Shown one piece after another: positions 166-14,999 of a DNA stretch of 14,999 nt (the stretch's first letter is position 1; each line of letters begins with the position of its first letter). The stretch is from IMG/VR virus record IMGVR_UViG_2563366959_000014; one strand, 5' to 3'. The DNA comes from a virus (taxonomy: Duplodnaviria > Heunggongvirae > Uroviricota > Caudoviricetes). The notes under the pieces were generated by a model that was given only the letters and a program-made list of their open reading frames with translations, was not told the DNA's origin and did no database searches. The translations under genes were made by a program, and so were the position numbers.

Positions 166-251
166 TTTAATTAAATAATTTACACCACAAAAAGTGCCAA
201 AAATCGCAAAATGACTACACCAGTGACTACACCGTTCGGTGCACTGTATGA

Positions 252-277
252 AACAACGTGGAACAAATAGACACAAG
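252..277 (+). promoter_or_regulatory. Copy A of a composite direct-repeat site (AACAACGTGGAACAA then ACACAAG)
   Basis: Exact 13-mer AACAACGTGGAAC at 252-264, also present at 7749-7761 (+) and 13702-13714 (-); flanking bases also similar. Confidence 0.4.
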
Positions 278-7570: not shown

Positions 7571-7748
7571 GCGGCAAAAACTCAACCGTTTTTCATAAGG
7601 AAATCAGCAATCGCACCGATCGTTTTCCCGCCTGGTAATGAATATTGGTGAGCACATTAACAGGCGGGAAAGTGGCCCCAGCGTCCTGGCACCACTGGCG
7701 AGAATAATCATGATTCAGGGCGGGTAAAATATGCCGATCCGGTCAATG

Positions 7749-7773
7749 AACAACGTGGAACGACCACGAACAA
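7749..7773 (+). promoter_or_regulatory. Copy B of the composite direct-repeat site (AACAACGTGGAACGACCACGAACAA)
   Basis: Exact 13-mer shared with 252-264 and 13702-13714; about 215 bp upstream of the capsid operon start. Confidence 0.4.
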
Positions 7774-7790
7774 ATAATTTACAAAAAATT

Positions 7791-7814
7791 ACAAAAAGCC
7801 GGATTGCTCCGGCT
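7791..7814 (-). terminator. Rho-independent terminator (minus strand)
   Basis: AGCCGGA / TCCGGCT stem, 4-nt loop, followed on the minus strand by TTTTTGT; 10 nt after the stop of the 74-aa gene. Confidence 0.7.
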
Positions 7815-7824
7815 GTATGGGTGC

Positions 7825-8049
7825 TCAGTCCCTGATCCCTTTCAGAAATTCTATCAATGCATCTATCTGTTCAGGATTTACTGCCAGCATTTCACCGGAT
7901 AGAGCACATCTCACAAAACCATGCTGATCCTTTTCAATCAGTGCGCCCGTCTCCAGGAATGCGCGGTAATCATTGATGTTCATCGTCTCCATGTTGTCAG
8001 CATGGTATTTATCACGCTGTTTTAATATCTCATCAAATTTCATCGGCAT
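7825..8049 (-). CDS. Hypothetical protein (74 aa), moron-like cargo
   Basis: ATG at 8049 with AGAGGA Shine-Dalgarno; AT-rich relative to neighbours; bracketed by two near-identical terminator hairpins. No family recognised. Confidence 0.6.
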   Translation of the reverse strand: MPMKFDEILKQRDKYHADNMETMNINDYRAFLETGALIEKDQHGFVRCALSGEMLAVNPEQIDALIEFLKGIRD

Positions 8050-8144
8050 TGTTTTTTCCTCTGTTGTGTCTGTTTGTTTCAGATAGTAACTATGCCGGAC
8101 CGTGACGAAAAGCCGGTAATGCGCCATACCGTTTCAACTGGCGC

Positions 8145-9466: not shown

Positions 9467-9700
9467 AACCCTTCACCTGTTCACCTTTTGATATTTTATC
9501 TTTTAATTCATAATGTTAAGGGGTGAACAGTTTCACAAAAACTATTCACCAACTGTTCACCACTGTTCACCCTTGAAGCTCAATAAACAATCAAAAAGGT
9601 GAACAGTGAATAGTTTGGTGAACAGTTCATAAATAACTGTTCACCCTATAATATACTGATATAAAAGATATTTATGACAGGGTGAACAGTGGTGAACAGT
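9467..9700. repeat. Replication origin: about ten GGTGAACAG / CTGTTCACC iterons in both orientations within an AT-rich segment
   Basis: Iteron copies at 9478-9485, 9522-9530, 9543-9550, 9553-9561, 9563-9571, 9598-9606, 9617-9625, 9638-9646, 9681-9689 and 9691-9699; the segment lies directly 3' of the primase gene. Confidence 0.75.
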
Positions 9701-12445: not shown

Positions 12446-12499
12446 GGTGTTGAACACCAATTTAAACCCAGGTGTTAAACACGTCAAGTGTTGAACACT
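12446..12499. promoter_or_regulatory. Three palindromic operators (GTGTT-N-AACAC) in a divergent promoter region
   Basis: GGTGTTGAACACC at 12446-12458, GGTGTTAAACACG at 12471-12483, AGTGTTGAACACT at 12487-12499. The third overlaps a plus-strand -35-like TTGAAC (12491-12496), with a 17-bp spacer to a -10-like CATACT (12514-12519). Confidence 0.6.
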
Positions 12500-12548: not shown

Positions 12549-12728
12549 ATGGCGACAAAAGCAGTAAACGCAAAATCACAAACCGTTGCGGCAAGGGTTC
12601 CGCATGAAGTTATGAACAATGTTGAGGCGGTAAAAATGCCTGGCGAAAGTACGGGGCAATTTGTTACTGCAGCATTAAAACGAGAAGTTGAATATCGCCA
12701 GCGGCGCAAGGCCAAAGAACCAGAGTAA
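12549..12728 (+). CDS. Ribbon-helix-helix (Arc/CopG-like) DNA-binding protein, 59 aa
   Basis: Not in the supplied ORF track (under 60 aa). ATG at 12549 with GAGGGG Shine-Dalgarno. TVAARVP (beta strand), HEVMNNVEAV (helix), GESTGQ (turn), FVTAALKREV (helix) fits the RHH pattern. Divergent from the replication operon. Confidence 0.55.
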   Translation: MATKAVNAKSQTVAARVPHEVMNNVEAVKMPGESTGQFVTAALKREVEYRQRRKAKEPE

Positions 12729-12785
12729 TCACCATCAGCGCCGTGGTGTAAGGTATTACGGCGCATTGCTATGCAGGACAACACA

Positions 12786-12959
12786 ATGACCGATAAAGAA
12801 TTGACCAAAACATTATCACCGGCACGGAAAAGACGGCGCAGAAAGATAGAGCATGAATCAGAAAGATTCGCGCCATGTGCTTTTGCCCTTGAGCAATTCC
12901 TTAAAGAGTACAGGGAAAAGCGCTCATTGCAGGTATGGCAACGAACTGAACCAGACTGA
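12786..12959 (+). CDS. Small basic hypothetical protein (57 aa)
   Basis: ATG at 12786 with AGGA upstream (alternative start at 12771); contains an RKRRRRK basic tract; followed by a terminator. Confidence 0.4.
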   Translation: MTDKELTKTLSPARKRRRRKIEHESERFAPCAFALEQFLKEYREKRSLQVWQRTEPD

Positions 12960-13054
12960 TAGCATTGCCCACCAGCCTGATAGCGACTATCATTGCCGTT
13001 CTTATGTTTGGGATCACACACACAAACGGCGCAGCGGGTTATCTGTTCAGAAAG

Positions 13055-13082
13055 GCGGCTCCATTTCGGGGCCGCTTTTTTT
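13055..13082 (+). terminator. Rho-independent terminator (plus strand)
   Basis: GCGGC / GCCGC stem followed by seven T, about 95 nt after the stop of the second plus-strand small gene. Confidence 0.6.
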
Positions 13083-13228
13083 ATGTCTGAAAAACCCCAA
13101 TTTTGTTGTTTTTCAGTTTCACCAGGGCGAACGAATCCCCGCCCACGTTCGGGCGCATATTCAATCTTCATGGTTATAGCTCTGTGTTCAGATGATTGAT
13201 GTGTGGCGGCTGCGTGCCGCCAGCGTGA

Positions 13229-13417
13229 TTAATGAACTGCCTTGCAGCTATCCTTCCAGGCCAGAACCTCGGATAAAGACCAGCCAACGGAACGACCGCC
13301 AAGTTTACGACGTGATGGGAATTGTCCGGCCTTTTCCATGCGGTAGCGACACGTACGGCTAAGGCCGGTTAGTTTTTCGCATTCTTTTTCACGTATAAAC
13401 CGATCAGTGCTTAACAC
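13229..13417 (-). CDS. alpA: AlpA-family regulator / excisionase-like HTH protein
   Basis: 62 aa; KLTGLSRTCRYRMEKAGQFPSRRKLGGRSVGWSLSEVLAWK fits the AlpA/Vis winged-helix pattern. GTG start at 13417 with AGGGGG Shine-Dalgarno at 5-nt spacing; lies downstream of the integrase. Confidence 0.8.
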   Translation of the reverse strand: MLSTDRFIREKECEKLTGLSRTCRYRMEKAGQFPSRRKLGGRSVGWSLSEVLAWKDSCKAVH

Positions 13418-13568
13418 TATTGCCCCCTTTCGTTTCTTAAAGAGTCATCAGGTGTCTTATTGTGTCGTATTGTTCCCGCTAGAGTGATGAATGGCAAATG
13501 TTGGTGGCGGATGGTTTACAGAAAGAGGAATAATCAGGATAAAATCATTTAAATTCATGTTAATACAA

Positions 13569-13599
13569 AGGCATAAAATCTCGTTTTATGCCTTTTTTC
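13569..13599. terminator. Hairpin with flanking A/T runs, likely terminator for the integrase transcript
   Basis: AGGCATAAAA / TTTTATGCCT stem with a 5-nt loop; TTTTTT follows on the plus strand and a U-rich stretch follows on the minus strand. Confidence 0.45.
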
Positions 13600-13689
13600 T
13601 CACGCTTTAAAGCGTGATTCGCTAATGTATAAAAAACCAGTAATATAATAAAAATCAGCGACTTATAAATCTGTATGCTTTTTCGCCTC

Positions 13690-13740
13690 TTGTTCGTGAT
13701 TGTTCCACGTTGTTGCACATTGTTTCACGTTGTATCTGTT
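13690..13740 (-). promoter_or_regulatory. Copy C of the composite site, embedded in five tandem 10-bp repeats (TGTTnCACnT)
   Basis: Consecutive decamers TGTTCGTGAT, TGTTCCACGT, TGTTGCACAT, TGTTTCACGT, TGTATCTGTT; reverse complement contains the exact AACAACGTGGAAC. Lies between the integrase stop and alpA. Confidence 0.45.
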
Positions 13741-13781
13741 CGCATATCCAGTATGCGCATACTGAAAAAACCCGAAAAAAA

Positions 13782-14999
13782 TTATTTTCTTCTGGCTACG
13801 GGTAGCGTGGTTACGTTTTCATGTGCTCCCGCCAGTATCCCTAACCGCTCCGTCCACATATCCAGCGCATCACGTTTCGCATCCAGATAACGGGAATGGT
13901 TATAGACTCGTTGCATCCCTGGCATCTGATGACCTGTAAGCTGCTCCACGACGTGAGGATCCGCGCCTAAATCGTTCAGCATCGTTGTAAAGGTGCGCCG
14001 GATGTCATGCAGTGACCATTGAGGGTGTTTTAGCCTCCTGTGCGCTAATCTGCCGTACTGCGATACGCTGGCCTCCTGTTTCACTTCCCCCAGCAATAAG
14101 CCCGTGTGCCTGTTCTGCTCCACCAGCTTCATGACAAACGGCAGGATCGCTTCCGGTATGGGCCGGAATATTGCGACCTTCGTTTTGCTGTGCTCCTTCG
14201 GAACGGTCCATAGCATTTCCGTAAAATCCCACTCCCCGATCTCCGATAACCTCAGTTCTACCGTTCTGGCACCGAAGACAATCAGGAGGCGGATTAACGC
14301 GACGTAGTAAGGGGAAAATATTTTTTTATCCAGTGCCTGCAATAACTCGCCAAGTTCTTTGGTGCTTAAGACACGCTCGCTTATATCCGGTTTTTTCCCA
14401 ACGTCCGCAACGTTCAGATCGTCCAGAACGTTGCTGATTGCATAGCGCCGCCTACGGCAGAACTTAAGCGCCTGTTTGCACGCCTGTAGCACGAATCCGG
14501 CAGTAACAGGCGTTCGCTTTGCCACCTGGTCAAAACAAGCCAGCCAGTGCCGTAGCTCGCATTTATCCAGCGGCATAGCACCAATGTGCTGTATTACGTG
14601 ATTATTAAGTCGCCTTTTCAGGGCGATATAATCCACGCGGTTTTCCTTTACGTAAGACTCAAGCCAGTAGGTAAGCGCATCGCCAACCGTTACGGGCTTT
14701 AACGCTTCCTGTACGGTGTAATTCATCTCATGACGTGGATTTTTCCCCTCAGCCAGCCATGCGCGACACTGTGCGGCTTTTTCCCTGGCTGCTTTCAGGC
14801 TCAGATCAGGATAACTTCCCAGCTTAATGCGTTCGGGTCGTGTCTCCCTTCCCGTTCCGGCCCTGTATGTGAAATACCATGTCAATTTCCCTGATGTTAA
14901 ATATTTCACGCTCAGGTTTCCGCCATCACTATAAAACGTGTTTTTCTCAGCTGGCTTACCATGAAGTTTCCTTAGCAATGTATCGCTCAGTTTGTTCAT
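13782..14999 (-). CDS. int: Tyrosine integrase, P4-type
   Basis: 405 aa; N-terminal arm-binding-like region (YSDGGNLSVKY...WYFTYR) and a C-terminal catalytic region with the conserved HDIRRT and a tyrosine near the C-terminus. ATG is the last three bases of the window. Confidence 0.9.
   Translation of the reverse strand: MNKLSDTLLRKLHGKPAEKNTFYSDGGNLSVKYLTSGKLTWYFTYRAGTGRETRPERIKLGSYPDLSLKAAREKAAQCRAWLAEGKNPRHEMNYTVQEALKPVTVGDALTYWLESYVKENRVDYIALKRRLNNHVIQHIGAMPLDKCELRHWLACFDQVAKRTPVTAGFVLQACKQALKFCRRRRYAISNVLDDLNVADVGKKPDISERVLSTKELGELLQALDKKIFSPYYVALIRLLIVFGARTVELRLSEIGEWDFTEMLWTVPKEHSKTKVAIFRPIPEAILPFVMKLVEQNRHTGLLLGEVKQEASVSQYGRLAHRRLKHPQWSLHDIRRTFTTMLNDLGADPHVVEQLTGHQMPGMQRVYNHSRYLDAKRDALDMWTERLGILAGAHENVTTLPVARRK

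Follow-up and report, generated by a model that had tools for sequence, protein, structure and literature searches.

The window, by which we mean the whole 14,999-nt stretch of DNA analyzed here, is identical to positions 2380262–2395260 of the chromosome of E. coli SCPM-O-B-9504. The island is about 15 kb long, is inserted in tqsA and carries its main genes all on the minus strand in the order int (14999–13782), alpA (13417–13229), an Icd-like gene, a DUF4222 gene, a primase gene of the D5/P4-alpha type (11545–9713), SSB and PerC, followed by genes for capsid, protease, portal, head completion, HNH, TerS and TerL. Judged by this gene set, the window is a phage satellite, namely a capsid-forming PICI (cf-PICI) of the EcCIEDL933 kind. 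The true start of int lies four codons past the window end. For features beyond the window we used a 32.6-kb locus (L001) that includes the window sequence and both att arms. The int–alpA region was found in 877 of 5426 complete E. coli genomes. Just 3′ of alpA, a frame at 12724–13171 corresponds to a truncated pseudogene in the identical RefSeq record, and this zone differs widely among islands. Three palindromes of 11–13 bp (GGTGTTGAACACC, GGTGTTAAACACG and AGTGTTGAACACT) lie at 12446–12499, between the divergent Icd-like operon and a gene of the YlcI/YnfO family; by appearance they look like operators of a dimeric repressor. The features needed for the following analysis are:

129–137, no strand assigned: att core identity block TGCTGTTAT, at the tqsA junction
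211–233, plus strand: doubled 12-bp motif, two copies of GACTACACC, predicted Int arm-type sites of the P′ arm (from sequence and covariation)
247–276, minus strand: attR-arm array TTGTGTCTAT TTGTTCCACG TTGTTTCATA (phased scan; identical in EcCICFT073)
7744–7773, minus strand: capsid-operon array TTGTTCGTGG TCGTTCCACG TTGTTCATTG (phased scan with one mismatch)
13229–13417, minus strand: alpA, 62 aa, PF05930, proposed binder of the arrays (ORF, domain match, structure model)
13450–13479, plus strand: proximal (P) array AGGTGTCTTA TTGTGTCGTA TTGTTCCCGC (sequence; TRF 13452–13473)
13469–13497, minus strand: predicted sigma-70 promoter of alpA (consensus match and alignment)
13567–13600, no strand assigned: hairpin with T-run between D and P, intrinsic terminator (z −5.3 and −3.5)
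13601–13616, no strand assigned: palindrome 1, 16 bp, CACGCTTTAAAGCGTG (repeat search, alignment)
13690–13739, plus strand: distal (D) array, five 10-bp units with a TTGT(T) core (sequence, TRF, repeat search)
13749–13764, no strand assigned: palindrome 2, 16 bp, CAGTATGCGCATACTG (repeat search, alignment)
13782–14999, minus strand: int, P4-type tyrosine integrase with an Arm-DNA-bind_3 N-terminal domain (ORF and domain match)

An earlier note on this DNA had described five tandem 10-bp repeats between the integrase gene and alpA. These repeats are present and constitute the D array, which starts 43 nt past the int stop codon and lies 273–322 nt upstream of the alpA start codon. Its units read, head to tail, TTGTTCGTGA TTGTTCCACG TTGTTGCACA TTGTTTCACG TTGTATCTGT. 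The strict 10-bp phasing claimed for them was borne out: TRF returned a period of 10 without indels, the repeat search gave spacings of 10 and 10, and the same phase recurs in all 25 versions of the array that we collected. The proposed consensus TGTTnCACnT is exact in three units (13700–13729), while the first and last units are degenerate and retain TTGT. Comparison among islands showed that the CAC portion is lineage-specific and does not belong in the consensus; the conserved core is TTGT(T). Three or more exact TTGT copies at a strict 10-bp period are expected at 0.0045 runs per simulated window, and no run of five or more units arose in 2000 simulations. Counted alone, the 8-mer TGTTNCAC shows no enrichment across the window (5 observed, 2.1 expected), and therefore the signal of the array resides in phasing and clustering.

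The spacer between int and alpA contains several further elements. The predicted alpA promoter, a consensus match like all promoter predictions given here, consists of a −35 hexamer TTGCCA (13497–13492), a 17-nt spacer and a −10 hexamer AACAAT (13474–13469). The −35 hexamer and the 17-nt spacing are kept in all lineages. A corresponding search around the D array produced only weak or poorly conserved consensus matches on both strands. The terminator between D and P is canonical on the plus strand and weaker on the minus strand, where it would mark the end of the int transcript; in one locus (L008) its hairpin carries a compensatory change from A-U to G-C. The two 16-bp palindromes that had been reported to flank the array were both found. 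Palindrome 1 can be extended to 18 bp (13600–13617) and is imperfect in most lineages. Palindrome 2 is missing in islands of the EcCICFT073 type, which carry extra TTGT units in its place. Judged from the alignment, the palindromes are real, yet appear lineage-specific and less conserved than the array. The best-conserved block of the spacer (13606–13640) resembles a plus-strand promoter, with TTTAAA, a 16-nt spacer and an invariant TATAAA; a transcript from this pair would traverse the D array and continue antisense into int. A 71-aa ORF at 13675–13890 is not conserved in the EcCICFT073 type, and an Rfam scan of the window returned no matches.

To follow the array across islands we aligned the int–alpA spacer from 8 E. 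coli islands and then from 63 distinct variants, including contigs from IMG/VR. The array was found in these 63 intergenic variants. Its 25 different versions contain 5–7 units and hold the 10-bp register in every case. Counted in the register of the window alone, 18 of 20 TTGT columns are invariant as compared to 7 of 30 other array columns (Fisher p = 6e-6), and 160 of 314 columns are invariant in the remaining spacer. This pattern indicates selection on the TTGT positions. The number of units varies in exact steps of 10 bp, and one variant gained exactly one unit. In the D array of an IMG/VR contig (L056), the unit TTGTTGCTCA is duplicated exactly, with 10 bp added and the phase kept.

The D array has relatives in the same island, three of which the earlier note had overlooked (the P, attR-arm and capsid-operon arrays). 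In L001 (32.6 kb), D, attL and attR are the only places with exact phased TTGT runs. The attL-arm array (L001 17863–17902) lies just outside the window, and the attR-arm array is about 128 bp from the core. Both att-arm arrays represent the D motif in inverted orientation near the two island ends. In the same coordinates the D array occupies L001 16491–16540 and the att core near attL 17988–17996. D and P share the motif and are 1.45–1.7 kb from the core, D upstream of the terminator and P over a promoter predicted by consensus only. P comprises 3 units here and 3–4 in other lineages, and overlaps the predicted −10 and start-site region of alpA.

Allowing one mismatch revealed two further sites in L001, which correspond to window positions 7744–7773 and 8054–8093. 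The first is prolonged by two A/T-rich TTGT units to about 7796. It is located about 210 nt upstream of the capsid gene, after a terminator hairpin (7790–7812). This array is kept in another cf-PICI (L102) and is absent in classical PICIs, whose late module differs; its distribution suggests an AlpA-controlled late promoter specific to capsid-forming PICIs. The second site is a weak two-unit match (TTGTGTCTGT TTGTTTCAGA) just upstream of the start of the gene at 7825–8049. It may be due to chance, with about 0.1 such relaxed runs expected per window. A sequence that follows both the D and the capsid array, TCGCATAT, is unequally spaced in the two (13 versus 20 nt) and was treated as coincidence.

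The same module is present in EcCICFT073, with arrays at attL, attR, D and P. Within 49 kb around this island, including a lambdoid prophage, phased runs are found only at these four island sites. Distant islands from Kosakonia, Enterobacter, Phytobacter, Buttiauxella, Hafnia, Erwinia and IMG/VR, with Int 54–67% and AlpA 63–69% identical, retain this layout upstream of int: a phased TGTTC array and, after it, the doubled motif. Those at loci L010–L018 have an extra gene between int and alpA and no int–alpA array of the D kind, so that they are informative for the att arms only; a generic scan of these loci for phased 4-mers gave nothing convincing. Just before the alpA start, the distant islands contain a hairpin with two CGAAC/GTTCG units 10 bp apart. 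At loci L010–L016 and L087–L098 this hairpin (GCCCTCG-N12-CGAGGGC) is found about 20–50 nt upstream of alpA, includes the likely Shine–Dalgarno sequence of the gene and precedes a T-run. Between two lineages, the 12-nt loop that contains the two CGAAC units is inverted.

In both att arms the TTGT array adjoins the doubled 12-bp motif, which reads as two copies of GGTGTAGTCAC on the minus strand. The pair at 211–233 has its partner at L001 17837–17860, outside the window. In 40-odd loci this motif shifts in step with the N-terminal arm-binding domain of Int, which occurs in four types. Type A (SVKYLTSGKL) pairs with GTGTAGTCAC, type B (SVRHSTSGLL) with GTGTAGTTAA, type C with GTGTGGTCAG and type D with GTG(T/C)AGTCAG. 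The pairing holds whichever AlpA variant is present, whatever the remainder of Int, and at each insertion site (tqsA, roxA or yifB). The record of phage P4 annotates adjacent 12-bp “attP arm sequence repeats” in pairs on either side of the core. Since the doubled motif covaries with the Int N-terminal domain and matches the P4 layout, it can be assigned with good reason to Int as its arm site. The TTGT arrays are unchanged between Int types A and B. Two classes of motif imply two proteins, and we therefore assign the TTGT arrays to a protein other than Int. Among the islands (loci L002–L098), the Int N-terminal domain and the doubled arm site appear to have been swapped as a unit, independently of the catalytic part of the protein and of where the island is inserted.

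The product of the gene next to the arrays is the best candidate for this second protein. A sequence search of the PDB with AlpA gave 8c3t as the sole match. The AlpA model (pLDDT 86.5) has as its best structural match the same entry, the GIsul2 excisionase, with a TM score of 0.83–0.90. Its next structural neighbours are RdfS, Pukovnik Xis, TorI, BldC and N-terminal domains of the MerR type. According to this model, AlpA is a winged-helix protein of the excisionase (RDF) fold. A literature search on 8C3T returned nothing relevant, and no AlpA binding site in PICIs is named in the literature searched.

Published genetics on EcCICFT073, whose Int and AlpA accessions are those of our loci L006 and L007, bear directly on the function of this protein. 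AlpA activates a PalpA–lacZ fusion from this island but not Pint (Fillol-Salom et al., PMC6092414). The alpA gene is needed for induction and transfer, and an alpA mutant neither excises nor transfers; conversely, pBAD-alpA alone leads to int-dependent excision of EcCICFT073 without raising Pint (PMC6092414). Using the published primers, we mapped the PalpA–lacZ fragment (pJP2038) to L099 4128–4583. One end of this fragment lies in the last codons of int and the other at codon 19 of alpA, so that both D and P are included. The published primers for the Pint reporter had no match within L099, so that we could not connect the attL array with the reported finding that AlpA leaves Pint unaffected.

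The D array is a genuine, conserved feature, and is best read from these sequence comparisons as a candidate AlpA binding array, one of at least four in the island. Direct repeats spaced by one helical turn are the binding sites of Apl, Cox, Vis, TorI and RdfS at att, and several of these proteins also occupy such repeats at a remote regulatory site. Arrays of this RDF type are recognizable by direct repeats 10–11 bp apart, by occurrence of the motif in an att arm near Int arm sites, and by a small winged-helix RDF encoded on the same element. Here, we find 5–7 units with a 10-bp period in 25 of 25 variants, the motif in both arms, and AlpA (PF05930, with the modeled fold). The suggestion that the repeats have the architecture used by Xis/Vis/AlpA-type winged-helix proteins thus has comparative support from the phased motif in both att arms and at the alpA promoter, from the adjacent excisionase-like wHTH protein and from the AlpA-responsive EcCICFT073 reporter fragment that carries the arrays. 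The phased, conserved and island-exclusive arrays are most likely docking sites for AlpA.

The choice of AlpA follows from its PF05930 RDF fold together with the AlpA-activated EcCICFT073 fragment that contains both arrays. That AlpA is the binder, and by which route and with which sign it would regulate from D, we infer from sequence. By analogy with Apl, Cox, Vis and TorI, the best reading of AlpA would be that of an excisionase and regulator in one. That D is one of several arrays bound by AlpA acting in both capacities is, in our estimation, somewhat probable. AlpA monomers would bind head to tail on TTGT(T), one per helical turn. Through the arrays in the att arms, which adjoin the Int arm-type sites, AlpA would give the excisive intasome its shape. 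In the int–alpA spacer, D and P would provide feedback of AlpA on its own gene, with P overlapping the predicted alpA promoter and D about 220 bp further upstream, past the terminator. In cf-PICIs, the extra array before the capsid operon may allow AlpA to drive this operon as well.

Several observations speak against this assignment to AlpA. AlpA barely varies in lineages A and B, so that there is no covariation of AlpA with the motif in these lineages, and in distant lineages AlpA and Int diverge together. For a simple activator, D is awkwardly placed, with a terminator between it and the predicted promoter, which is about 200 bp away. An array over the −10 and start-site region, such as P, usually means repression, while the literature reports activation. 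The orientation of the array relative to its gene differs between alpA and the capsid operon. Finally, the whole island was present in the pBAD-alpA experiment, and another island protein induced by AlpA could be the true excisionase. DNA wrapping by a filament, a promoter beside D, or control of a plus-strand transcript are possible ways to fit the positions of D and P.

Other proteins may be considered as the occupants of the TTGT repeats. The earlier note had also proposed arm-type recombination sites. Such sites can be tandem and about one turn apart, as exemplified by lambda P′1–3; Int has an arm-binding domain and the TTGT motif is present in both att arms. Arm-type sites would be expected within about 150 bp of the core and would be expected to covary with the arm-binding domain of Int. 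The D array and the crossover core are about 1.45 kb apart, and the TTGT arrays do not follow the Int N-terminal domain. It is the doubled 12-bp motif that tracks this domain and that agrees with the P4 arm-repeat annotation in copy number, period and core distance. That Int uses or regulates the region through TTGT repeats is therefore quite improbable, and the proposal of arm-type sites is not supported for D. The resemblance of TGTTnCAC to the type I iteron of P4, TGTTCACC, and an A/T-rich stretch beside the array could point to replication-origin iterons for the island primase-helicase. Repeats of this kind would be allele-linked and located by the primase gene, a description that the TTGT arrays do not fit. 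Nine perfect TGTTCACC iterons are found instead at 9478–9698, immediately 3′ of the primase gene; in EcCICFT073 the primase differs and the iterons are of the TCTACC type, yet the TTGT arrays are the same; and the iteron-like CAC part of the units is not conserved. An origin function for the TTGT repeats is thus extremely improbable. The region at 9478–9698, which contains one near-perfect copy in addition to the nine perfect ones, on both strands, is the likely origin of the island, and TCTACC-type repeats occupy the equivalent place in EcCICFT073. The polymorphic unit number would be consistent with a non-functional array, either a slippage-prone minisatellite or a fossil att arm. This explanation is very improbable given that TTGT is kept while the remainder of the units diverges, that the array persists in 63 intergenic variants, and that no doubled Int motif is found beside D.

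The arrays could also be bound by a protein of the helper phage, such as its excisionase, which would switch on alpA in trans and might share the sites with AlpA. The helper-encoded inducer of alpA is still to be named (PMC6092414), and a precedent exists in P4, where P2 Cox binds three tandem 10-bp TTAAAG repeats upstream of vis and thereby derepresses P4 (PMC3936717). Excisionase cross-talk between a PICI and its helper is on record (PMC11773190), and TGT-rich units (TATGTTGTGT and TATGTAGTCT) are also present in the Xis sites of lambda. The likeness to the lambda sites is confined to TGT, however, and none of the 17 resident prophages of EDL933 appears to serve EcCIEDL933 as helper. With no phage present, AlpA by itself is sufficient to activate the reporter and to trigger excision (PMC6092414). 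We consider this explanation unlikely. A more specific version, in which the arrays are the entry point at which an excisionase-type helper protein turns on alpA before AlpA takes over, would correspond, for a PICI, to the activation of P4 by P2 Cox at tandem cox boxes; we judge it rather unlikely. A further candidate would be another DNA-binding protein of the island or the host (PerC-family, YlcI/YnfO, IHF, Fis or H-NS), and several small regulators are indeed common to the window island and EcCICFT073. The TTGT repeats are not known to resemble the consensus of IHF or Fis. AlpA shows the RDF fold, arrays at att are retained in distant islands, and int, alpA and pri are described as the three genes conserved and essential across Gram-negative PICIs (PMC10111431). 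An occupant from this group instead of AlpA seems fairly improbable.

AlpA is the master switch of Gram-negative PICIs, and the literature searched leaves open how this protein both auto-activates and triggers excision. A defined motif that marks the alpA promoter region, both att arms and, in cf-PICIs, the stretch before the capsid operon makes this question testable. The proposed AlpA system has close parallels in Apl of phage 186 and Cox of P2 (PMC7498355, PMC3936717). These proteins likewise use direct repeats one turn apart, with 5–7 units far from att and a similar set at att, and in both systems the small wHTH protein is encoded next to the regulatory array. In those two systems, Apl and Cox are placed between lytic and lysogenic promoters that face each other, and repress both. 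In the window, the arrays lie on both sides of a terminator upstream of alpA, and AlpA is reported to activate. The window arrays also differ by the motif, TTGT(T) as opposed to the cox box, and by their presence in both att arms.

P4 shares with the window island a P4-type Int, an AlpA-family gene (vis in P4) preceded by tandem 10-bp repeats, and TGTTCACC origin iterons adjoining the primase gene. The doubled 12-bp arm repeats are about 134 and 75 bp from the core in P4 and about 143 and 90 bp in the window island. In contrast, the repeats upstream of vis are TTAAAG boxes for the Cox protein of the helper, and int and vis are far apart. Between the arm repeats and the core of P4 (L103 3985–4014) we noted three units with a 10-bp period (cGGACAACCT cGGAAGACGC aGGACGAAAA); these may be Vis sites, and their position matches that of the TTGT array in the window island. 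TorI of KplE1, a wHTH RDF that also regulates transcription and a structural neighbour of the AlpA model, binds three-site blocks with a 10-bp period (GTTCG, GATCG, GTCCG) in attL (PMC2951348). The TorI sites differ in that they are confined to attL and repress intS, and no remote array by torI is described.

AlpA of P. aeruginosa has the same name, is also predicted to be a winged-helix protein and is similar in that a terminator separates its binding site from the target genes. Its binding element (ABE), which mediates processive antitermination, occurs once between −35 and −10 and reads GGGACGN5GGTA (PMC7969949). No such element is visible in the spacer sequence, and our AlpA matched only 8c3t in the PDB. 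Lastly, HE-PICIs carry a doubled attP motif, tgTGTATTGCantgTGTATTGCa, with the same doubled 12-bp layout, placed asymmetrically at 81 and 132 bp to either side of the attP centre (PMC10111431). That report left open whether Int or AlpA binds the motif and called it unique to HE-PICIs. In the islands compared here, covariation assigns a related doubled motif to Int, and this motif is distinct from the TTGT arrays. This assignment answers the question of the binder, and separates the Int arm sites from the candidate excisionase sites in this integrase clade.
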